Shown: positions 13,191 through 57,000 of the stretch, piece by piece
Layout: the number at the start of each line of letters is the position of its first letter
Numbering within the stretch: the first letter of the stretch is position 1
Source of the DNA: Anaerolineaceae bacterium 4572_78
Lineage (GTDB): Bacteria > Chloroflexota > Anaerolineae > 4572-78
Length of the DNA: 64,000 bases
Assembly: GCA_002084875.1 (NCBI GenBank)
Contig: NBMH01000005.1
Span: 27,284 to 91,283, forward strand
Direction: 5' to 3'
Position numbers and translations under genes: made by a program
Notes under the pieces: model-generated
What the model was told of the DNA's origin: nothing
Seen by the model: the letters and a program-made list of their open reading frames with translations, nothing else
Databases searched by the model: none

Positions 13191-13307
13191 TATACAACAT
13201 TGTATTCATTTCTAATAATTGTTCTAACTTTCTAGTTTACCACACGGTGTCTGCTTTTGAAAAATTTTCTAGTACTGAACAGCCATGGTCATTTACCACC
13301 TCTATTT

Positions 13308-15704
13308 TTAAGGAAGAGGGGTAGGTATTGAAGTCGAAAGGGTGAGATTACTGATTCCGACCCGAACAACTGAAATCTTTTCATTCCCCGATTTATCACG
13401 AACAACAAGACGAATCGTGTAGGTTCTATTGCTAAGTGTGTTGGTATTCCAAATATAAAGTGTTTCCCCTTCAACTCTTGTGGTTTGAGGTTCGTTTGTC
13501 AGCGGCACAAAACCTTGAGGGTCCACACCTTGTCCTATTTCAACAACATAATGAGCAAAATCATCTCCCGAGGCAGTCCCATATAATTTGACTGTCTCTT
13601 GTAACGTTTGACCATCGCTGGGTGAAATGATATTTGCTACAAGGTTAGTATCGGTGCTTGTTGTTTCTCCTTCGGGATTAGGTAATTGATTAGAGACAAA
13701 TGGGTCAAGACGGCGATTGTTGGGACAATCATTTTCTGATGCGGGAAGCATGCGTGTGTAGGCACACACTTCCATCTCGACAATACCAGACGGGCGAGCA
13801 AATTCCTTAACAGGTTTGCCTTCATGAAACCGCTCCATAAACTCATGCCAAATTGGTGCTGCCCCACTTAAACCTGTTGTTCCCTGCATGGGAGAGTAAT
13901 TAGCATTGCCAACCCACACCCCAATCACCACATCGGGTGTATAACCAAATGTGAGATTATCACGAAAATCATTTGTTGTTCCAGTTTTAGCAGCCGATGG
14001 GCGTGATAACTTAAGAGGACTATTAGGTCCAAATTCGATAGTTCGAGCATCATTGTCCGATAAAATACTGGTCATCAAATAAACATGTTGAGAATGCAAA
14101 ACCTGTTCAGGTTTAGGCGGCGGCGGGGTAATGTCGTTATCAGCACTATCGAAAACTTTACCGATAGCATGAGGCTTGATTTTCAGTCCTTCATTAGCTA
14201 ACACTTGATAAGCTCCCGTCATTTCTACTAATGGGATTTCACCTGAACCTAGTGCCAATGACAAGCCATAATACTGTCTGGTCAATGTTGTTACTCCTAA
14301 ACGAGTTGCCATTTCCTTAAGAGCCTCGATTCCAACAAAATCAAGTGTTTTCACTGCGGGAATGTTATACGAATTTGCCAATGCAATCCGAAGTGAAACA
14401 GGCCCATGAAATTCAAGGTCATAATTGATAGGCTCATAAAATCCACCCATGCCATCAGGATAAGTGGTGCGAACATCCATAATCATTGTTGCAGGTGTCC
14501 ATCCTCGTTCAAAGGCGGCTAGATAAACAAGGGGCTTAATTGCCGAACCAGGTTGACGAGGACTAACAGCCATGTTGACTTGCCCAGCAATAACATTATT
14601 CCAAAAGTCTTTGCTACCGACCATAGCCAAAATCTGACCACTTTGTGGGCTAATCGCAACTAAGGCACCATTGGTCACGTTTTTACTAGCAAGCTCATTA
14701 ACCTTTTCTGCTACCACTTCTTCAGCCATTGCTTGTATTTGAGCATCAAGAGTGGTTTGAATTTTCAAGCCTGCTTCGTATACACTGCTATAGCCTTCAG
14801 GTGGATTTGCCTCCAATTCGGCTAAGACATAGCTAACAAAGTGAGGAGCATCAAGTTTATAAGATGGATAAATTAACTGTTCAAAAACAGGCTCTTGCAT
14901 AGCCATTTGTGCTTCTTGTTCGTTAATATATCCAGCTTCGACCATCAAGCTAAGCACAATTTCTTGGCGACGACTGGCTCGTTCTTTGAACGAATACGGG
15001 TCATAAAAAGCTGGGCTTTGTGGTAAACCAGCTAAAAGTGATGCTTCTGCTAAGGTCAAGGCTCTGGCAGATTTGGCGATACCCACCGCATCATCAGGCA
15101 ATGGTGGAGCCGCTAATGGCTCTTTTCCAAAGTATGTTTGACTAGCAGCTTCAATGCCATAAGCTAGATTGCCATAATAAGTTTGGTTGAGGTACACCTC
15201 TAAAATTTGGTCTTTGCTGTATTCGTTGTTAAGTTTAATAGCTAAAAATCCCTCTCGAATTTTTCGGGTCAAGTTTCGTTCTGTACGTTCTTCTTGAGAT
15301 AAAAGAACATTACGGGCGACTTGCTGGGTGATGGTGCTTGCCCCTGATACAATTTCTCCTTCAGTAGTGTTGTAATAAAATGCTCGTAAAATAGCTATGA
15401 AATCAATTCCAACATTGTGAAATTCATAAAAGTTACGGTCTTCGGTGGCGATAGTAGCATGTTTCAAATCTTCGGAAATCTTGTCCAAAGGAACATAAGT
15501 TCGCCGCCCAAAATTAGGGTCATTAACCTCCCACAATAATTCACCATTACGACCATAAATACTGGTGGTTTGGAATTGAAATTGTTGCTCTATCAATTGG
15601 TCATGGGGTGGAAGGTCAACAGTAAAGGTGTCATAAGCCTGATAAGCCGCACATGACGCTCCACAAACAACAACGAGTATTATAATCAAAATTATAGTTA
15701 GCAT
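13308..15704 (-). CDS. Class A penicillin-binding protein (GT51 transglycosylase plus transpeptidase) with a C-terminal beta-rich extension
   Basis: 798 aa with an N-terminal anchor. GT51 motifs ATEDRNFYEFHNVG and GASTITQQVARN. Transpeptidase motifs GSAIKP (SxxK), SYN (SxN) and KTGTT. Confidence 0.9.
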   Translation of the reverse strand: MLTIILIIILVVVCGASCAAYQAYDTFTVDLPPHDQLIEQQFQFQTTSIYGRNGELLWEVNDPNFGRRTYVPLDKISEDLKHATIATEDRNFYEFHNVGIDFIAILRAFYYNTTEGEIVSGASTITQQVARNVLLSQEERTERNLTRKIREGFLAIKLNNEYSKDQILEVYLNQTYYGNLAYGIEAASQTYFGKEPLAAPPLPDDAVGIAKSARALTLAEASLLAGLPQSPAFYDPYSFKERASRRQEIVLSLMVEAGYINEQEAQMAMQEPVFEQLIYPSYKLDAPHFVSYVLAELEANPPEGYSSVYEAGLKIQTTLDAQIQAMAEEVVAEKVNELASKNVTNGALVAISPQSGQILAMVGSKDFWNNVIAGQVNMAVSPRQPGSAIKPLVYLAAFERGWTPATMIMDVRTTYPDGMGGFYEPINYDLEFHGPVSLRIALANSYNIPAVKTLDFVGIEALKEMATRLGVTTLTRQYYGLSLALGSGEIPLVEMTGAYQVLANEGLKIKPHAIGKVFDSADNDITPPPPKPEQVLHSQHVYLMTSILSDNDARTIEFGPNSPLKLSRPSAAKTGTTNDFRDNLTFGYTPDVVIGVWVGNANYSPMQGTTGLSGAAPIWHEFMERFHEGKPVKEFARPSGIVEMEVCAYTRMLPASENDCPNNRRLDPFVSNQLPNPEGETTSTDTNLVANIISPSDGQTLQETVKLYGTASGDDFAHYVVEIGQGVDPQGFVPLTNEPQTTRVEGETLYIWNTNTLSNRTYTIRLVVRDKSGNEKISVVRVGISNLTLSTSIPTPLP

Positions 15705-23509: not shown

Positions 23510-26500
23510 TTATTTCAAAATAATCGGCAAATAAATATACTCACTGTTAACAGGTAATGTTACTTCTTCCATTTCCTGAGAGCTCATCATTGTCCAACAA
23601 GAAAAATGATTAATTTGAGCCGTGATGCGGTTTGCTTCTTTATCTATACTAACACTATCTACACCCGCCCAAGCACTAATATCGGCAGAAAGGAAAGCAA
23701 TGGATAAATCATCTTCATTAATACCGAGTGATTCCAATTCATTCTTTGTGTAGTACCAAGTCATAATGATATTAGTATTAAAATCACTGACAATTTGTTT
23801 ACCACTACTATTCTCATAAACAGAAAAATAATAACTGTATCGCAAGGGACGAGACAGACGAGTATTTAACAAATTATCAACGGAGGGAGTAATTGAAATG
23901 CGAACAGTATCAGTAGTGGGCATTGCTCCACCAGGAATTTCAATGTGAGTACCATCATCAAGGGTGTACGACCACCCAACAGCAGGATCAAAGGTATCTA
24001 CCACACCTTCGGGAAAACTGTTTGGAGCTTGTTGCATGACAATATCAGCTGTCTGATTGGTGGTAGACATGACAACCGTAGTTGGGGTTATTGTTTCGTA
24101 GTAAATGGCACTATTTTCAGGATTATAGTTTGCTCCGATGTACCATGTTGTACCTGTTACTACATTTAAGGTAAAATCGCCAGTTGAGTCGGTGCGGGTG
24201 CTGGTATGGTGTCCATCTTTTGACCATGCCCAGACTAATGATTCAGGGGCAAGTGTTTTTGTGCCTTGTTCAAGGTAATATGCAGTACCTAGAATTGTTC
24301 CCCCTTTTTCCTTAAATTGCAAAGTCAAGCTAATAACAGAATTTGCTGTAGGTGTTATCACTTGCATGGTTGGTTGCATCATGTCCCAATGGATGGGCCC
24401 ATAAGCACCCACTTGATACGGAATACCTGAGGGGACATGCATTTCAAAATAACCGTTCCCTTCGCTATCATCCTCAATAAAGATTTCAGGATATGTTTCA
24501 GAACCAGCATAATAAGCCCAGACTTGGGCAAAGTTTTGATTATCTCCGTCGGGGTTTTTGATAATGCCTCTAATGGTGCTATCAGCTAACAGGACTGTAA
24601 AATTTTGGGTAGCAGTACTGCTATGGGTAATAACAACCGATTCATTTGGAATGGCATACTTGAGATATTGGGTGGAAACTAGCGAATAACCTAAATGCCA
24701 TGTGCCTGCTGAAACAGGCAATTCGTATTGACCTGTATTGGCATCAATTCTAGTTACTTGCCATGCTCCTTCGTCACTTAGGGCAAAGACTTCGCCTTTT
24801 AGATTACTGACAGCTTCTTCTTCACCTGTAGCATTACGGGTGTAAAATTCACCCTGAATAATACTATCATTTGATAATAGGGTAAAGGTAACGGTATAGG
24901 TTTCTTGTTGTGTTGATGGTTTGTGCGGTAAGGAAACCTCATCTGGAGCGTCAAACTCTGGTTTGACAGTCAAGGCAAGAAAGGTTTTCGAAAACCTTTC
25001 TTGTCTGACCATTATCCCATGCCCTCGTTGAACAGGGGTCTCCTGATGCTCCTCTCCTTCAAAGGGGAGGGGTTGGGGTGGAATCTTTGCTACATCAATC
25101 GCTTGCTCTTGACTGATTGAATAGCCACTATTAGGAGCTAACCATATCCCAATTTGATATGTCCCTTGTGGTACATTCATGCTAAACTGACCGTTTTCAA
25201 TTGGACTGGCGGCAAGTGGTCTTAGTTTATCAGACTCACGAGCATAAGCCCAACCATCCACATCAATTAATGGCACTCCATTGGCATCATGCACATGTCC
25301 TTGAATGACATTAGAGGTTGGTGTCAATTCAAAATCAACTGTTGCAGTCATGTCTTTTGTAACTTTAATACGTTGAGGTGGTTGGCTAACGTAAGTCGAG
25401 GTGTAAGGAGGTGTTACTTGCACTAGCCATTCTTTAGCTTGGGCATATATTGAAGATTGTTGATTATCATCTGCGGCTACTACAGCAATGTGATATTTGC
25501 CATCTGCATCAGTTAAGGTAGAAATGGAATCGCCATGATGTTGCCAGACATGCACCATAACATTGCTAACAGGTATATCATCATCACTACGTATCACCTG
25601 TCCCATGATAACCGATGTTTTATTTTGCAATTGAATCACCCCAATATCATTTGTGCGTCCCACATCCACATCAAGTGGCGAGACAAAAGGAGCATGCCAA
25701 TTGGGATACTTGGTCTCATCAATTTCAATGTCAACATTATACACCCCAGCCACCACAGGAACAGTAAAGTTGCCACTGAAATCTACAGGGGCAATATTAA
25801 ACATGCCTCCATCTGTGTCATAGACAGTGATAGAGATTGCTTTGCGAGGAATGATTGGCGGACCTTGTATCTGACCAATAATAGTGGCATCAGTGTCTTG
25901 TACAATAAAATCGGCTTGTTTTTCTTCAGGGGAATTATCATCAGCAAACTGAACTATCTGCGTTTCATCGGCAAACATCCATTCAACTGCTCCATGATTA
26001 AAGATAGGGTATACGCTTACTTCCCAAGTACCGGGCGAAGCAGTCAGTTCAAATTCACCATTTTTATTGGTGAGGACATGTATCCAATTCCAATCTTCTT
26101 GCTGAACGGCAACTACTGCCACATGCTCAACAGCGTTTTGACTTGGTATTGCCACCACACTACCGACAATGCGTTTGAGGGATTGCTCAAAGCTAATACC
26201 ACCTAAATCTACCATGTAATTGGTATCCGTAATTACAAAAAGTTTAGCGGGTGGAGGAAGTAATCCCATGCCACCTGCTCCCCAAGGTGATGACACTTCT
26301 ACGGTGTAACTTCCAGTTGGCAGTCCACCAAATTGAAAATTTCCGTCTTGCCGACTTATGGTATGTTCCAAAACCGAATAATCATGGTTGTAAACATGAA
26401 TTATAGCTTTATGAACTGAATTACTATCAAAATCAACCACATGTCCCCGTACACTAACTTTGGTTAGGGTTAGAGGGTTTGTAAGTTCAATCGTTTTTGT

Positions 26501-28051
26501 TTCGGTGATGACCTGAAAGACCACCTCCGATTGGGCATAATTTTGATATGTTTCATTTTGCGGAGGGTATGCTTGAATAAACCATTCGCCAGGCATAAGA
26601 TTGGTTATTTGAAAATTACCTGTTTGGTCAGTAATGCTAGTTTTGGGGTGCATATCATTTTCTGATAAGGCTCCAACTACCCCTCCTACAACAGGTGAAC
26701 CATCGGGTAAAACCACCCGTCCTAAAATTGAGGTAGATAATTGTTCTTCTAAATAGAAGTCAATATTTTTGGTTATGGTATAAACCGTAACGATATCGGC
26801 TGACCATTCATTAAATTGATGGTCATAAAACTGCATGCCATATCCTAGAACATCTATCCATACTTTGTAATCCCCTGCTAAGAGATTGCTAATGGTATAC
26901 GTTCCTGTGGCATCAAATTCTGTGGTCTCACTTTGCCATACACCATCGCCAGGTAATAATGTTGTATTGCTAATTGATACTGCTCTGACAGTTCCATGTG
27001 TAATGGGCATAGTGCCATCCACATTTGTGGCTCTACCTGATATTTTCGCCTCAATTGGCAGATAAAAATTAGTACCTCTTACAATTCCATCTGAAACAAT
27101 AACAATGCTAGGATTACTCAAATCAAAGATATTGTTGTATGCCATTGGGATATAGCCTGATGCTTGTACTAAGACATGGTATTCCCCAGCAGTTAAATTT
27201 GTGAAGGTATAATGCCCACTGGCATTAACTTGAATAAAATCAATGACACCATCTGTAACGCGTTCTATAAAAACAGTGGCATTGGTAATGGGGTTATGGT
27301 TAATATCATGCACTCGCCCAGCAATACCGCGTTGAGGCTCTAAGGTAAAGTTTTTATTGGTAGCGGTCATGCCGACCGTAATTGTTACCTCATCAGCCGT
27401 AGCCCAACTAGGCTTGTTATTATAAAATTGAGGTACAAAACTAGGTGCAGTAGCAAGCAATTTATATTGTCCAACAGCTAAACCTTTAATGGCATAAGTG
27501 CCATCACTGTTAACAAATTCACCCATCCATGGGGTGGTGTTAGGATCTTCAGTAATATTTTTAGCAGAGACGATAACATTTGTTATAGGAATAGATGAAT
27601 CTACAGTCCCTACAACAGAACCACCAGCCCCAAGAATAAAATTAATATCATTGGCAACCGACTGGTTTGTGGTTACGGTTATAAGCGTTGCCTGCTGAGG
27701 ATAGTAGGCATCAGGAAAATCGCTTGAGTAAAACTCGGAGGCGTACCCAAATTTTCCGACGCGGACATAGTAGTTCCCTTCTTCTGAAATCATGAGGGCA
27801 TAATCCCCTTCATTGTCGGTGGTGGTGGTAACTACTGGAGTTTGAGCATTGGGTAATAAAGCTATTACGGTAACACCAGGAATAACCATATCGGAATTAT
27901 CAAAAATTTGTCCGTTTATACTTCCAATATTTTCAGTGATATTTTCTTCTCCTTTGACGGTAAGAGTATTGCTAGAGAATAATATCAAAAGTAAAAGTAT
28001 AAAGCTTGTGCCTAAAGAGAGTGAAAAAATAAATGATTTAAGTGTTTTCAT
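23510..28051 (-). CDS. Large secreted protein built from many carboxypeptidase-regulatory-like / Ig-like beta-sandwich repeats
   Basis: 1513 aa. N-terminal signal-like MKTLKSFIFSLSLGTSFILLLLILF. It has many (roughly 15-20) repeats of the type G.V.D..G.P+.GA.V......T.TD.NG.Y.+..L..G.Y. It ends in ..SEYIYLPIILK*. It contains an in-frame repeat-element insert at 24943-25082. Confidence 0.7.
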   Translation of the reverse strand: MKTLKSFIFSLSLGTSFILLLLILFSSNTLTVKGEENITENIGSINGQIFDNSDMVIPGVTVIALLPNAQTPVVTTTTDNEGDYALMISEEGNYYVRVGKFGYASEFYSSDFPDAYYPQQATLITVTTNQSVANDINFILGAGGSVVGTVDSSIPITNVIVSAKNITEDPNTTPWMGEFVNSDGTYAIKGLAVGQYKLLATAPSFVPQFYNNKPSWATADEVTITVGMTATNKNFTLEPQRGIAGRVHDINHNPITNATVFIERVTDGVIDFIQVNASGHYTFTNLTAGEYHVLVQASGYIPMAYNNIFDLSNPSIVIVSDGIVRGTNFYLPIEAKISGRATNVDGTMPITHGTVRAVSISNTTLLPGDGVWQSETTEFDATGTYTISNLLAGDYKVWIDVLGYGMQFYDHQFNEWSADIVTVYTITKNIDFYLEEQLSTSILGRVVLPDGSPVVGGVVGALSENDMHPKTSITDQTGNFQITNLMPGEWFIQAYPPQNETYQNYAQSEVVFQVITETKTIELTNPLTLTKVSVRGHVVDFDSNSVHKAIIHVYNHDYSVLEHTISRQDGNFQFGGLPTGSYTVEVSSPWGAGGMGLLPPPAKLFVITDTNYMVDLGGISFEQSLKRIVGSVVAIPSQNAVEHVAVVAVQQEDWNWIHVLTNKNGEFELTASPGTWEVSVYPIFNHGAVEWMFADETQIVQFADDNSPEEKQADFIVQDTDATIIGQIQGPPIIPRKAISITVYDTDGGMFNIAPVDFSGNFTVPVVAGVYNVDIEIDETKYPNWHAPFVSPLDVDVGRTNDIGVIQLQNKTSVIMGQVIRSDDDIPVSNVMVHVWQHHGDSISTLTDADGKYHIAVVAADDNQQSSIYAQAKEWLVQVTPPYTSTYVSQPPQRIKVTKDMTATVDFELTPTSNVIQGHVHDANGVPLIDVDGWAYARESDKLRPLAASPIENGQFSMNVPQGTYQIGIWLAPNSGYSISQEQAIDVAKIPPQPLPFEGEEHQETPVQRGHGIMVRQERFSKTFLALTVKPEFDAPDEVSLPHKPSTQQETYTVTFTLLSNDSIIQGEFYTRNATGEEEAVSNLKGEVFALSDEGAWQVTRIDANTGQYELPVSAGTWHLGYSLVSTQYLKYAIPNESVVITHSSTATQNFTVLLADSTIRGIIKNPDGDNQNFAQVWAYYAGSETYPEIFIEDDSEGNGYFEMHVPSGIPYQVGAYGPIHWDMMQPTMQVITPTANSVISLTLQFKEKGGTILGTAYYLEQGTKTLAPESLVWAWSKDGHHTSTRTDSTGDFTLNVVTGTTWYIGANYNPENSAIYYETITPTTVVMSTTNQTADIVMQQAPNSFPEGVVDTFDPAVGWSYTLDDGTHIEIPGGAMPTTDTVRISITPSVDNLLNTRLSRPLRYSYYFSVYENSSGKQIVSDFNTNIIMTWYYTKNELESLGINEDDLSIAFLSADISAWAGVDSVSIDKEANRITAQINHFSCWTMMSSQEMEEVTLPVNSEYIYLPIILK
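24943..25082. repeat. Composite R1 variant, R2a, TIR-like and R3 insert inside the 1513-aa CDS, read through in frame
   Basis: CTGGAGCGTCAAACTCTGGTTTGACAG, then CAAGAAAGGTTTTCGAAAACCTTTCTTG, then CGTTGAACAGGGG, then CTCCTCTCCTTCAAAGGGGAGGGGTTGGGGTGG. The minus-strand translation is IPPQPLPFEGEEHQETPVQRGHGIMVRQERFSKTFLALTVKPEFDAPD. Confidence 0.85.
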
Positions 28052-44308: not shown

Positions 44309-46711
44309 TTACTTCAATACAATTGGCAAATAGATAAAGTACTCGCTGACCGTCTCACCAATTGAGAGAATGGCACTCTCTTTAATGAGGGAATTATCAG
44401 CAAAGGAAGTGATAAAATCACGTCCATTAAGGTCATTGAGTTTTGTATCTGCTAGACGTAAGGTGACATTTGTTCCCACTGTGACATCTTCTGCCAAAGT
44501 CATGGAAATCGTTGCTATGTTACCATCGCCGCTCAGTTGTTTTGTATCAGCTAGAGCAATGCGTAGTTGACCCAGCCCATCATCATAAAATTCTAGATTG
44601 AAAGTTGTTGTCTTATCTCCTTTAGTGACATTACTGATACCACTAATAACATCTTTATCATAAATAACAACAAATTGACCACCTGCAAAGTTGTGTAAGT
44701 TTGTTGCTTGGAGAGTCATTTGAATTGTTGAGCCTGCCGCACCAATGACATCCACTAATGCAATGGTGGTTGTTTCACCAGACCTGACAGGTTTTTGATT
44801 GGTGGTCGGAATGGGGGGCCATTGACCATGAACAGCATAATACAAAATCATACTGGCATCAGCAGCTTCAATTATACCATTACCATTTGGGTCTCCCGCA
44901 AATATTTGTTCTTGGCTTGGAGGGCTAGGTGGTGTTTGCCCCACTGCAAATTGCAAACTTAATAAGGCATCGGCTGCCTGCACTACACCATTTCCATTCA
45001 AGTCACCCAAAACATATTGAGCCGTCTCTTCAACATAAAAAGTACCATCCTCTAATATTAGTGGCACAGGATTGAATAGGTCATCAGGGGTGTAAATCGT
45101 GGAACCACCGACATTACTAATAAAATCTTTCAGGTCAAGAGAACTTGTAACTGTCGCTGTATCATTTGCTGTCATAGCTTCCACTAGATAACAGTAAGTT
45201 GCTTTTGGAACTAGATTGCTATCTTCATCAAAATAAACCGTTTCTAAGACATTATCAGCGATTATATCAAAATTTAAGAAACTGCCTGTGCCATCATTTC
45301 TAAGCATGCGATAGATGCGATAATGGGTAACTTCAGCATTATTGGTAACATTCCAATCTAGTTCGATGTTTCGATGCCCTGCTTCGACTTGGAGCATGAT
45401 AGGGACGATACCTGGTGGAACAGGTATCGGTGTTGCTGTTGGTGCAGGGGTCATGGTTTGTGAAGGGGTAGTGGTTGGGGTATTAGGTGTCTGACTTTCA
45501 GTTGCACATTTGTAAATTTTTGAATCGACGTTTTTAGTAGAATCATTTTGATTATTAGCCACAGCTAAATATGACTCATTATCAATTGTGAAAAACTCCC
45601 AATCTTCTGCACCATTAGTCAAAATAAGTTGACTTTCAGTAAAACTACTACCATTCCATTGATAAATCACAGAATTGATAACTTTAGTTGAGCCATCGGA
45701 AACATTAGCTACAACCAAATAGTGATTATTGTCAATACTAAAGAATTTCCAATCACGAGCACCTTGCGTAAGTATACTTTGAAATTCAATAAAACTGTTA
45801 CCATCCCACCGATAAATCACGGAATTGATATTCGAGGCGGAGTCATTATTGGTATTAGCTACAGCAAGATAGTGATTGCTATCAATGGTGAAAAACTCCC
45901 AATCATGTCCTCCACTAGTGAGAATGGATTGAAATTCAATAAAATTGGCACCATTCCATCTATAAATCTTGGAATTGATGTTACGAGTAGAACCATTAAA
46001 ATAATTACCCACCACTAAATATTGAGTATTATCAATGACAAAATATTCCACATCTTGAGCTCCTGTGGTGAGTATGGATTGGTATTCCACAAAGTTTGTG
46101 CCATTCCATTTGTAGATTTTGGAATAAACATCGCGGTCGGTATTTGTGCCGTCACAGTAGTTAGCCATAGCTAAATAATCGTCACTATCAATGGTGAAAA
46201 ATTCCCAGTCATTGCCGCCAATGGTGGGAATGGATTGAAATTCCTCAAAACTATTACCATTCCATTTGTAAATCTTTGAGTCGATATTCCAGTTAGAATT
46301 ATCATTATTGTTAGCCACAGCTAAATAATCGTCACTACCAATGGTGAAAAATTCCCAATCCCAAGCATTGTAAGTAAGTATGGATTGATATTCCACGAAG
46401 CTACTACCATTCCATTGATAAATCTTTGAATCAACACTGGTTGTATAAAGCTCTCCACGATTAGCAACGGCTAAATACGAAACATTATCTATCGTGAAAA
46501 ATTCCCAGTCTTTAGCTCCACTAGTTGGGATAGACTGAAATTCCTCAAGTTGCAATTCTTGAGACAAAGCCGACGATGTACTATCACTTATTATCATGCT
46601 CAGAGTGGCAATAATAATGGTGATGATTAGAAAAATTAAATCTTTTATTATTATACCTGTTGTGTTTGATTGGGGCAAATTTGGGTAATAGAAATATAAG
46701 AAAATTGGCAT
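44309..46711 (-). CDS. Secreted or anchored multidomain protein: seven EAR/EPTP-like propeller repeats, P/T linker, FN3, dockerin, cohesin-like domain and a conserved C-terminal tail
   Basis: 800 aa. There are seven repeats of ..SKIY+WNG.SF.E+QSI.T.GA.DWEFFTID...YLAVAN.. (aa 56-402). FN3-like region at aa ~436-525. Two EF-hand-like dockerin loops, GDLNGNGVVQAADALLSLQF and GDPNGNGIIEAADASMILYY. A cohesin-like beta domain at aa ~648-785. It ends SEYFIYLPIVLK*. Confidence 0.7.
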   Translation of the reverse strand: MPIFLYFYYPNLPQSNTTGIIIKDLIFLIITIIIATLSMIISDSTSSALSQELQLEEFQSIPTSGAKDWEFFTIDNVSYLAVANRGELYTTSVDSKIYQWNGSSFVEYQSILTYNAWDWEFFTIGSDDYLAVANNNDNSNWNIDSKIYKWNGNSFEEFQSIPTIGGNDWEFFTIDSDDYLAMANYCDGTNTDRDVYSKIYKWNGTNFVEYQSILTTGAQDVEYFVIDNTQYLVVGNYFNGSTRNINSKIYRWNGANFIEFQSILTSGGHDWEFFTIDSNHYLAVANTNNDSASNINSVIYRWDGNSFIEFQSILTQGARDWKFFSIDNNHYLVVANVSDGSTKVINSVIYQWNGSSFTESQLILTNGAEDWEFFTIDNESYLAVANNQNDSTKNVDSKIYKCATESQTPNTPTTTPSQTMTPAPTATPIPVPPGIVPIMLQVEAGHRNIELDWNVTNNAEVTHYRIYRMLRNDGTGSFLNFDIIADNVLETVYFDEDSNLVPKATYCYLVEAMTANDTATVTSSLDLKDFISNVGGSTIYTPDDLFNPVPLILEDGTFYVEETAQYVLGDLNGNGVVQAADALLSLQFAVGQTPPSPPSQEQIFAGDPNGNGIIEAADASMILYYAVHGQWPPIPTTNQKPVRSGETTTIALVDVIGAAGSTIQMTLQATNLHNFAGGQFVVIYDKDVISGISNVTKGDKTTTFNLEFYDDGLGQLRIALADTKQLSGDGNIATISMTLAEDVTVGTNVTLRLADTKLNDLNGRDFITSFADNSLIKESAILSIGETVSEYFIYLPIVLK
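44779..44795. repeat. Half R2b arm (AGACCTGACAGGTTTTT) inside the propeller-cohesin CDS
   Basis: It encodes KPVRS in the dockerin-cohesin linker. The same peptide and DNA occur at 54194-54209. Confidence 0.7.
45506..46546 (-). repeat. Seven tandem ~47-50-codon EAR/EPTP-like blades (coding repeat)
   Basis: The core DWEFFTI / DVEYFVI / DWKFFSI recurs seven times, each followed by YL(A/V)VAN and SKIY.WNG. Confidence 0.8.
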
Positions 46712-54098: not shown

Positions 54099-57000
54099 GT
54101 GAAACATTTTTTAATTAATCTTATCAGGATAATTGTCATCGTCGCAAACGTATTTCCTGTAAGTGCAGTATTCGCTTACGGAAATTCTCGCTCAAAACCT
54201 GTCAGGTCTGAAGTCAATTCGCCAAGACAAGAAAGGTTTTCAAAACCTTTCTTGTCTGTCCCCTTAGCTGATATTGTCTCTCGCCATGAAAATCAAAATT
54301 ACACTCCTATTTTTGTCAATATTCCTAGCTCGTTGACAATTTCTAAACCCGATTTACATGTCAAAGCAAGCTTTGACCCTCCTATCGAACCCCTCTCCAT
54401 GTGGGAGAGGGGCAGGGGTGAGGACTCAAGTTTTGCTATTCCTGCTTGGTTTATTGGTGACCAATCTGAACCTGATGTTTCGGATTCGGATTCCGATATA
54501 TTGCCTGATTGGTTTACCACTTCATCGTTCCAAATTTACATGCCTATTATTTTTGGAAATTATACATCCCAACCATTACCTCTCACTACCAATAGGTCTA
54601 TCCCTGAATCCGTGCTTGAAGTTACCCTTGAGGGACCTGATGGCAGTAGAAGTGGCATGGTGGCGAGTTTAGGTTCACCTGTCGGTAGCGGGGAAATTTA
54701 TACTGCAACTGTGTTTAATGATTCTGATGAGACCGCTTACGGTGCGTATTTCACTGTGACATGGCCGTCGTTTTTTACATGGGACGGTTATTTGGATGAA
54801 GGCTATTCGGCGGATGCATCATTAACCCTCTCACCAACTGTCGGAGCAAATAGTGCAAAATTTAATCCGAGTGCAACTCTCGATTTAGCCCCTAACGAAA
54901 CTGTTACATTTACATTTAAACTACGAGCAACATGCGTGGCAGAATCGGCACAACAAGCACGAGCAGGAATCCGTTATAACGCCGATGACGGAAGTTCCCC
55001 AGATGATTTAAACACTGGTGGTTTGAATATTACCACAGGTCAAGCAAACTTAGTCATCCGCAAAGACCCTGATTTAAGCAATGTTTCCACATCAGACATG
55101 GGCAAATCGATTACATGGATTGTCACGGTGCAGAATACTGGCTTGGGCATTGCCTACGATGCTTATGTAACTGACACGGGTGGGATTGGGCTTTCGCAGC
55201 CGAGTGGTGATTTGACTCCATCGGCTCATATCGCCTCATTGGGCATCAACAAAAAATTTACCTATACCGTCGTCGGTACAATTGAGGCATGTAACTTCAC
55301 CAATGTTGCACAAGCCGCTTGGACATGTGGCAATGCTGTCGGCGATGCTACACAATCCAATCCCGTCAGTAGCACAGCTTCCGCCATGTTTGATTTGATC
55401 CTTTCCAATCCACAAGTTGATGTCAGCGGGCCGGAAACGTTTGATTATTGTTCTGACATGACCAAAACAATTTATGTGACATTGACTAATAATGGCGGGC
55501 CTGTCGATAATTTTTATTACGATAGCAATCTCGAAGATAACAGTTTTCTAAATGTAATCACCAACACTGTTCCCACCACATGGGATTATAACCCTGCTAC
55601 TGGCATCTTCAGTTATACCGATGGTCCCTCGTCAAACTTGACAGGATTTCTACCTGACCAAAGCGAAAATCCTGAAATTGTCCTTTCGTTTGATGTCAGC
55701 AATGCTGATAGCGTTTGTACCGCAGGTAGCGGTTCGATTTCGCTTACGCCATTTTACAGCGATATTTGTAACAACTTACAAACCAAAATAACTGACATTT
55801 CATGGAATTATAATTATGGCGGGATAACTTTACCCACCTTAGACATAACCAAAACTGCACCCGCCGAAGTAGCCACAGGACAAACTTATGATTATGAAAT
55901 TATAGTTAGAGGCGATAATCCTATCCAAATTGACGGGCGAGTTATCATAACCGATATTCTACCAAATGGTGTTTTATATCAAAGTCATGTCAAATCAACA
56001 GGCAATATTACACAAACAGGTAATACGGTTTATTGGGATTTTGAGCCTGGCATTCTTCCTACATTTGATGAAGCATTGACTATAACAGTTAAGGTTAATG
56101 ATACCAAAGGAGTATGTCCTGCGGGCGATATTTTGAACAATAGAATTACCGCTTCAGCAGATACCTTATGTTCTAGCTGTTCCACATTAACGGCAACCAC
56201 AAATACAGAAACGATAATCATCAATATGCCCACAGGCATTTCTGCTAGTGGCGGCTACAACGGCTCAACACAAACTTGCGATACAGGTATTACTATCTTT
56301 AATCATTTTGATGTCAGCGGCTCAGCCGTTATCACATGGAACGGAGCAACCTATACTGACACACTTGGTTTGAGTGGGGCAAGTTCGTTAACTGAAACTG
56401 CCAACTTTATTTATCAAAGTAATTCATTCGAAGTGTTTGTCAACAACACAGATTATAGCAGTCATGTTACACCCATAATGAAAAATGACAGATTTGTCGT
56501 TGACTTATCTCCATTACATGGGCAGGGAGCATTAACACAAAACATGACCGTCTATTTCACATACACCCTCAACTTTACCGATGCTTCACTAGACAATTCT
56601 TCTGAAACTTTTTTAGATTGGTGGGAATTTTACATGCCAAATGCTGATAGTTGTGCAGGCAATCAATCTTATAACGGTAATATTTCTGTTGACATTGAAC
56701 GCGGTGATCTACAAGCTAGTATTTCACCAAGTATCTTACGTAGCTGTCAAACTAATGTTGCCGAAATTACTGTTTCAGGAGCAGTCACCACATATGAAAC
56801 ATCAGAAATTGTCGTTCAATTTAAGAGTTCCACCGAACAAATTCAATCAGTCGTTGCTCATAACGTTTTCAGTTATACGGGCGGATTAAATGGCATTCCA
56901 GTTACCGTTACCAATGATACCGATATTGGTGGTGGACAGGGCGTTATCACCTTTACATTTGAAAAACCTGTTGACATTAGCAGTACGGGAACTATTCAGT

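Follow-up and report, generated by a model that had tools for sequence, protein, structure and literature searches.

Unrelated exoproteins of an Anaerolineaceae bacterium share an Ile-rich form of the YLP-box, a putative sorting motif of Chloroflexota

We analysed a stretch of 64,000 nucleotides from Anaerolineaceae bacterium 4572_78 (contig NBMH01000005.1, positions 27,284 to 91,283), referred to here as the window, in which two large genes, P0001 and P0002, encode unrelated proteins that end in nearly the same short peptide. An original prediction, made from the letters of the window alone, had proposed this tail as a candidate sorting or processing signal. Our comparisons show that both tails are Ile-rich copies of the YLP-box, a motif that NCBIfam curates as a putative sorting motif. 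The box is a portable, unstructured linear peptide under peptide-level selection, carried by exported proteins, and we consider it probable (about 0.6) that it serves as a sorting or retention tag recognised in trans by a non-classical partner.

Translation reproduced exactly the positions and sequences that the original prediction had given for the two tails (Table 1). Nucleotides 23513-23545 of the reverse strand code for SEYIYLPIILK, the end of P0001 (..LPVNSEYIYLPIILK, then stop), and nucleotides 44312-44347 of the same strand code for SEYFIYLPIVLK, the end of P0002 (..GETVSEYFIYLPIVLK, then stop). According to Pfam, P0001 consists of a signal peptide, at least eight CarboxypepD_reg/SdrD_B-type beta-sandwich repeats, an unassigned C-terminal region and the box; the signal peptide was called by a heuristic and not by a trained predictor. 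P0002 consists of an N-terminal hydrophobic segment, seven EPTP repeats, a dockerin, a cohesin and the box, and the domains upstream of the two tails are indeed unrelated, CarboxypepD_reg repeats in one protein and EPTP, dockerin and cohesin in the other. Over the eight codons of the box, the two genes differ by three synonymous changes and one non-synonymous change. With three hydrophobic residues and one Lys after the Pro, the tail is too short for a membrane helix, as had also been proposed.

One statement of the original prediction, that the tail matches no sorting signal that can be named, has to be withdrawn. NCBIfam release 20 contains two models annotated 'YLP-box putative sorting motif-containing protein': NF050076.1 'sort_motif_YLP', with 11 positions and a cut-off of 15 bits, and NF053834.1 'ultrashort_CTERM', with 10 positions and a cut-off of 10 bits. 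The consensus of the YLP-box is hydrophobic-[YF]-L-P-h-h-h-[KR] (h, hydrophobic), followed by 0-5 more residues, and the tails of P0001 and P0002 (IYLPIILK and IYLPIVLK, each directly before the stop) agree with it at the C-terminus. The window tails have the consensus, the extreme C-terminal position, the phylum and the kind of cargo in common with the curated box, and differ from it in having Ile, not Leu, after the Pro. Canonical tails match both models. Leu-type sister tails from the window's genome (AVYLPLVLK, QIYLPLVLK and HVYLPLILR) pass the curated cut-offs: scores of Leu-type tails were 16.1, 15.4 and 17.0 bits with NF050076 and 14-16 bits with NF053834. Homologues of the C-terminal cassette of P0002 pass them too (16.4 and 15.5 bits). 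When searched with hmmscan, full-length P0001 and P0002 gave no match to either model at E ≤ 1, their last 20-30 residues gave none at E ≤ 10, and none of the five Ile-type tails tested against the curated models was detected. We then scored all C-termini of the genome, with the filters off, against a profile derived solely from other organisms' canonical tails (74 sequences). The P0002 tail reached 16.3 bits and the P0001 tail 15.3 bits, within a continuous range of genome boxes from 19.0 to 10.4 bits (about 41 proteins), and everything else scored at most 8 bits. The window tails are missed by the curated hidden Markov models because HMMER filtering discards short, weak matches and the models prefer Leu in the position after Pro; since their filter-free scores fall inside the range of the genome's boxes, they are ordinary, under-detected members of the family. 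Literature searches on the motif and on Chloroflexi sorting signals found no paper describing the YLP-box. What was already known is this kind of motif, curated by NCBIfam as 'putative', and what is new is the Ile-rich pair of members.

To place the pair in its genome, the whole assembly (4.10 Mb in 252 contigs, 39.7% G+C, 82% complete) was scanned with the core motif [YF][LIM]P[ILVF][ILV][ILVM][KRQ] in all six-frame open reading frames (ORFs) of at least 60 residues. The motif occurs 57 times, and 37 of these copies end 0-2 residues before a stop codon, compared with 0.097 expected from composition. The genome logo reads [YF]-x-[IV]-Y-L-P-[IL]-[VI]-[LI]-K, with Pro in 35/35 boxes, Leu in 32/35, Tyr in 32/35 and Lys or Arg in 34/35, and Lys is the exact last residue in 26 of the 35 copies. 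About 12 further copies are internal to large ORFs, where they lie at module junctions, often ahead of Pro/Thr linkers; for instance, some precede an S8 peptidase or CARDB-like or Fn3-like segments, and others follow IPT or DUF11 repeats. These internal boxes are as well conserved as the terminal ones. The tail is not private to the window's pair: about 40 proteins of this genome and many in relatives carry it, in keeping with the original prediction. Its claim that the conservation lies at the peptide level also extends well beyond the pair. Among 48 boxes, pairwise identity is 0.80 at codon positions 1 and 2, 0.41 at position 3 and 0.29 in the 30-nucleotide flanks, and all four Pro codons and all six Leu codons are used. 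Scrambled third positions, together with flanks no more alike than background, show that selection on the box acts on the peptide.

The proteins that carry the box are of many kinds. Pfam searches on 20 of them found peptidases (Peptidase_M14, M23, C25 with its propeptide, and S8 with PKD), Amidohydro_3, Exo_endo_phos, DUF11/DUF7507, Big_9/cadherin-like and He_PIG domains, two dockerin-cohesin proteins and propellers (FG-GAP, SBBP and EPTP), with more than 12 unrelated Pfam families upstream of the box. This is the usual cargo of a surface-sorting system. Signal-peptide-like N-termini were called in 14 of 34 box proteins and in 249 of 1458 other large proteins (17%; odds ratio 3.4, p = 0.001), the first figure being depressed because the contigs are fragmented and start codons are uncertain. 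The enrichment among signal-peptide proteins that the original prediction had proposed to test for is therefore present, and the cargo domains are of extracytoplasmic types. A sorting or processing tag, which agrees with the wording 'putative sorting motif' used by NCBI, is the most reasonable reading of the tail. One box protein has an unusual architecture: on contig C6 (3202-5421; locus L094), LVIVD repeats, an internal YLP box, a Pro/Thr linker and an S8 subtilase are joined in one chain, and the fervidolysin-type prodomain (PF22148, residues 659-732) is located after, not before, the subtilase.

Comparison of homologues showed how readily the box moves between proteins. Orthologues of this genome's C25 peptidase in different families keep the box (VYLPLITR, VYLPIILK, LFLPLVARGA, TFLPVILR, VYLPAVLRN) while the spacer ahead of it changes. 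Homologues of the dockerin-cohesin region of P0002 end in a YLP-type box in 17 of 17 cases, although their N-terminal parts differ (PKD, trypsin, fibrinogen-like, PF19190), so that dockerin, cohesin and box form a portable cassette. In this genome the cassette is found on two proteins, P0002 (44462-45010) and a protein on contig C124 (669-1991). Variants lacking the basic residue, such as IYLPIIFASSM, occur in homologues. The presence of a dockerin and a cohesin in one chain suggests self-association into chains or networks. A family of mini-proteins of about 93 residues consists of a signal peptide, three GGxYxL..GGFW repeats and the YLP box, with no Pfam domain. It has 194 homologues; among the best 120, about 100 terminate in the box itself or in relaxed versions such as YLPLVRR, FLPLTTR and YLPLVLRNYEP, and about 10 have a dockerin-like module in the box position. 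Within this family, the box thus stands in for a docking module. At six mini-protein loci in Chloroflexota metagenome-assembled genomes (MAGs; L017, L026, L029, L031, L032 and L053), the gene often lies beside those for a beta-helix box protein and a fibre-like protein; the latter combines head repeats of the YadA type with what sequence inspection shows as an endosialidase-chaperone-like domain, and a helix-plus-Arg anchor of its own forms its end.

Structure prediction places the tail outside the preceding fold. We modelled P0002 residues 540-800 with AlphaFold from an alignment of 17 homologues; the mean predicted local distance difference test score (pLDDT) is 84.7, and the cohesin exceeds 90. 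The last strand ends ..AILSIG, and the 15 residues ETVSEYFIYLPIVLK are coil with pLDDT falling from 57 to 49. For the mini-protein only a poor model was obtained (mean pLDDT 57.7), in which the tail is likewise coil, at pLDDT below 50. In these models the tail is predicted to be a free linear peptide and no strand of the fold before it.

To explore the distribution of the box, one genome for each of 185,579 species was scanned with a stringent back-translation (IYLP[ILMF]VLK and then TAA or TAG), which gave 76 matches. All but two doubtful ones of the matches that end ORFs of at least 100 residues lie in Chloroflexota MAGs (Anaerolineae, Caldilineales, Thermoflexales and 'Chloroflexia'); matches outside the phylum lie in very short ORFs, and their number is about that expected by chance. 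Genomes of the window's class carry anything from control-level counts to more than 100 boxes. In the rest of the phylum, boxes were found only in family f73, in one genus of family f89 (both families of large, complete genomes) and in one further genome with 3 matches, and about 190 other Chloroflexota genomes outside the window's class have no boxes. In f73 and f89, genera rich in boxes occur alongside genera that lack them. One homologue of P0002 is labelled Roseiflexaceae. In these searches, the YLP-box is confined to two classes of Chloroflexota, Anaerolineae and Chloroflexia. Family f3, which belongs to the window's order, was apparently box-free under patterns that require Tyr. Its C25 orthologues end in RVFLPVVRR, RLFLPVIRR or HIFLPVVRR, and a broader pattern finds 2-5 boxes per genome; f3 was rejected as a box-free set because of these FLPVVRR-type ends, and the conclusions that depended on it were dropped. 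Since the f3 boxes escaped the Tyr-requiring patterns, pattern counts underestimate divergent boxes. Contig C1 of one relative, G002, encodes about 25 paralogues (e.g. at 2166500-2169500; loci L192-L199), each 490-530 residues long with an immunoglobulin-like C-terminal domain, that all end in GPNQVYLPLVL[QRK] at the stop; their DNA is near-identical, which points to a recently expanded box-bearing family, and one of them has acquired both an internal and a terminal box through a partial tandem duplication.

Like LPXTG signals, the box is a C-terminal Leu-Pro tag with a basic end on signal-peptide-bearing surface proteins, in a genome that has sortases; unlike them, it has no Thr-Gly (LPIIL-K, LPIVL-K) and no hydrophobic helix of 15-20 residues, and it also occurs internally. 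The order of a Pro-containing signature, a hydrophobic part and a basic end recalls PEP-CTERM/exosortase and PGF-CTERM/archaeosortase signals, but the hydrophobic part of the box is three residues long and not a membrane helix. Dockerins, which pair with cohesins, are likewise portable C-terminal appendages on diverse exoproteins; a dockerin, however, folds into a Ca-binding module of 60-70 residues and has a known partner, whereas the box is eight unstructured residues, too few for the duplicated Ca-binding loop-helix of about 60 residues that defines a dockerin. The C-terminal domain recognised by the type IX secretion system of Bacteroidota, with its C25-family sortase PorU, is also a helix-free tag on secreted hydrolases and adhesins, but it is a folded domain of about 80 residues. 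C25 peptidases, which cut after Arg or Lys, are common in box genomes; the C25 proteins in these genomes are themselves box cargo.

The box follows the last folded domain of Sec-exported peptidases, hydrolases and adhesins, and it also stands between the modules of multi-domain exoproteins. On the reading that we favour, a sorting or retention tag recognised in trans, a component of the envelope, either a receptor or a processing enzyme, would read the box and keep or place its carriers on the multilayered envelope of the filament, and recognition would depend neither on a free C-terminus nor on a membrane helix. Boxes inside proteins, and boxes that residues trail, show no loss of conservation, and the internal ones in particular speak against recognition of a free carboxylate. 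An invariant Pro, a Leu that is nearly so and an aromatic residue in a fixed place argue for specific recognition over stickiness, and the fact that most copies end exactly at Lys disfavours the removal of residues past the basic position. Cryo-electron tomography of L. aerophila, a cultured member of the same class, revealed a shared outer layer together with a protein layer of unknown composition (PMC13319060), and the outer layer is a plausible destination for box proteins. A more ambitious version, which we put forward only tentatively, is that the box is the address label of a sorting pathway without a membrane helix or classical sorting enzymes, in which a receptor or ligase would read the linear motif even internally and dock dozens to more than 100 exoproteins per genome on the shared outer layer or protein lattice of the filament.

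Several points weigh against the favoured reading. All-against-all BLAST of the genes within four positions of box genes in this genome found nothing recurrent, and the same comparison of the ORFs in 39 Chloroflexota loci found no recurrent partner next to tail genes; the neighbourhoods held only sensor kinases, SARP-like regulators, other surface proteins and the fibre-like protein with its helix anchor. The original prediction had looked to a co-occurring protease or transpeptidase, and here the outcome was negative, as co-occurrence tests with sortase (PF04203), exosortase (PF09721) and C25 (PF01364) gave no partner gene. In addition, signal peptides were called genome-wide with a crude heuristic that is positive for only 41% of the box proteins (in part because the MAG is fragmented), the dockerin swap rests on a single family, and the link between the box and the outer layer is a mere coincidence of taxonomic ranges. 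Exosortase was undetected in the window's genome, within its 82%-complete assembly, and in the box-rich genomes G000, G013, G029, G039, G075, G125, G234 and G258, and its absence from many box-rich genomes excludes it as an obligate partner. C25 was rejected as partner too: it is missing from G139, which has about 40 boxes, and is found in genomes at the control level. A protein of 198 residues on contig C43 (g00464) has a C-terminus, ..KPQDIPTLSEWAMILLTLLLMGMTFFERRKRPNLIGG, that resembles a tripartite signal of the IPTL-CTERM type, and no exosortase-family gene was detected in this genome.

Sortases call for closer consideration, as the box could be a miniature sortase signal, in which a dedicated sortase would cleave L-P-h-h-h-[KR] and link the protein covalently to the wall, three hydrophobic residues and a Lys or Arg replacing helix and basic tail. 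The Leu-Pro is common to box and LPXTG, and the fourth position is beta-branched (Val or Ile, sometimes Thr, as in FLPLTTR), both of which fit this idea; the lack of Thr-Gly and of a membrane helix does not. Sortase genes occur in 20/20 box-rich genomes, throughout f3 and in 19/19 genomes sampled from the second class. This near-universal presence fits the idea, but it extends equally to the box-free genera of the second class and to box-poor genomes, so that sortase is neither excluded nor specifically supported. In a tree of 74 sortase domains, one clade (96/95 support) has a member from each of the 19 box-bearing genomes sampled; it also has members in three of ten control-level genomes and none in the other seven, a contrast that is confounded by phylogeny. 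An earlier, quick tree had shown the clade confined to box-bearing genomes, which was given up when the careful tree added the three control-level genomes. This genome has four sortases, and its classical substrates (LPSTG, MPETG, MPVTG and VPATG, each with helix and basic tail) account for them, so that the box system coexists with LPXTG sorting. Its two members of the clade (C165:5983-6885 and C220:8620-9480) are stand-alone genes with no adjoining substrate, and a single counter-example, genome G034, has a box-like tail (PFFLPAYIR) and no detectable sortase. We regard a sortase signal of this kind as unlikely.

We are similarly sceptical of an anchor that needs no partner, with the hydrophobic heptad and its cation sticking weakly to a lipid or polymer surface, be it the outer leaflet of the cytoplasmic membrane or the inner or outer layer. 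Seven hydrophobic residues with a freely exchanged Lys or Arg (occasionally Gln), a tail that is unstructured in the models, and neighbourhoods and co-occurrence tests that yield no partner would all be expected of such an anchor. Eight residues are, however, very short for stable membrane binding, and a Pro kept in 35/35 boxes, a Leu kept before it in 32/35 and a fixed aromatic are typical of specific recognition. A signal for maturation or turnover, that is, a cleavage site that separates modules or trims C-termini, or a tag for an extracytoplasmic protease, with no role in localisation, seems to us quite improbable. It would explain why internal boxes coincide exactly with the borders between modules, in one case directly ahead of an S8 peptidase domain, why up to about five residues can trail the Lys or Arg, and why many cargo proteins are peptidases. 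In the 26 of 35 copies that end at Lys, though, nothing is left to remove past the basic residue, the dockerin swap points to docking and not to degradation, and the C-termini preferred by Prc/Ctp-type tail-specific proteases are small and apolar, unlike Lys or Arg. An artefact is scarcely credible, with about 0.1 terminal copies expected where 37 were observed and with so many unrelated Pfam families upstream. Of its possible forms besides a chance match, a structural last strand was rejected because the tail is coil outside the cohesin fold in the AlphaFold models, and a translated short DNA repeat because of the scrambled third codon positions and the background identity of the flanks.

Table 1. 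Coordinates of the two tail-bearing genes, their relevant parts and the doubtful further sites in the window
Feature	Position	Strand	Basis and remarks
P0001 gene, 1513 aa	23510-28051	-	ORF list, translation, Pfam
P0001 YLP box IYLPIILK, final eight codons	23513..23536	-	Translation; stop = 23510-23512
P0001 Sec-type signal peptide (MKTLKSFIFSLSLGTSFILLLLILFSSNTLTVK..)	27953..28051	-	Basic N-region then hydrophobic core, mean hydropathy 2.72
P0002 gene, 800 aa	44309-46711	-	ORF list, translation, Pfam
P0002 YLP box IYLPIVLK, final eight codons	44312..44335	-	Translation; stop = 44309-44311
P0002 dockerin type I module, residues 568-622	44846..45010	-	PF00404, E = 3.8e-7
P0002 cohesin, residues 651-750, last folded domain ahead of tail	44462..44761	-	PF00963, E = 1.3e-7; modelled pLDDT >90
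IYMPIIF, residues 146-152 of giant protein	54534..54554	+	Translation; without basic residue
YLPLFLK(N)RGGK then stop, -1 frame, 3' end of class-A penicillin-binding protein gene	13307-13327	-	

Two further sites in the window are doubtful. The original prediction had pointed to a related IYMPIIF in the giant protein; the site exists, but it has no basic residue and is indistinguishable from chance, as the proteome holds five such basic-less heptads against about two expected. It may be a chance match or a decayed box. The second site, YLPLFLK, lies in the -1 frame at the 3' end of a class-A penicillin-binding protein gene (798 residues, 13308-15704, reverse strand) whose in-frame product ends ..SIPTPLP. 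Orthologues of this protein in ten relatives have Pro/Thr-rich tails and no box, and three independent metagenome assemblies confirmed the reading frame; the site was rejected as a third box of the window and is either a chance match or what remains of a lost box. Metagenomes of marine sediments and hydrothermal vents, from several studies dated 2017-2025, contain sequences near-identical to the region around it (13200-13700), an indication of the organism's habitat, and strains can be told apart by a 6-nucleotide deletion at 13269 and an A>T change at 13264.

For annotation, the findings mean that the Ile-rich version of the box, YLPI[IV]LK, is missed by the curated models in AT-rich lineages, and that most of the approximately 40 box proteins of this genome, including both in the window, may go unlabelled. 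For biology, many of the enzymes and adhesins exported by Anaerolineae and Chloroflexia, a large share of the total, bear the box; these classes are filamentous bacteria that are abundant in sediments, hot springs and wastewater sludge and whose envelope is multilayered and chemically undefined. Explaining how a helix-free tail of eight residues sorts or retains these proteins would add a new mechanism of bacterial surface display.

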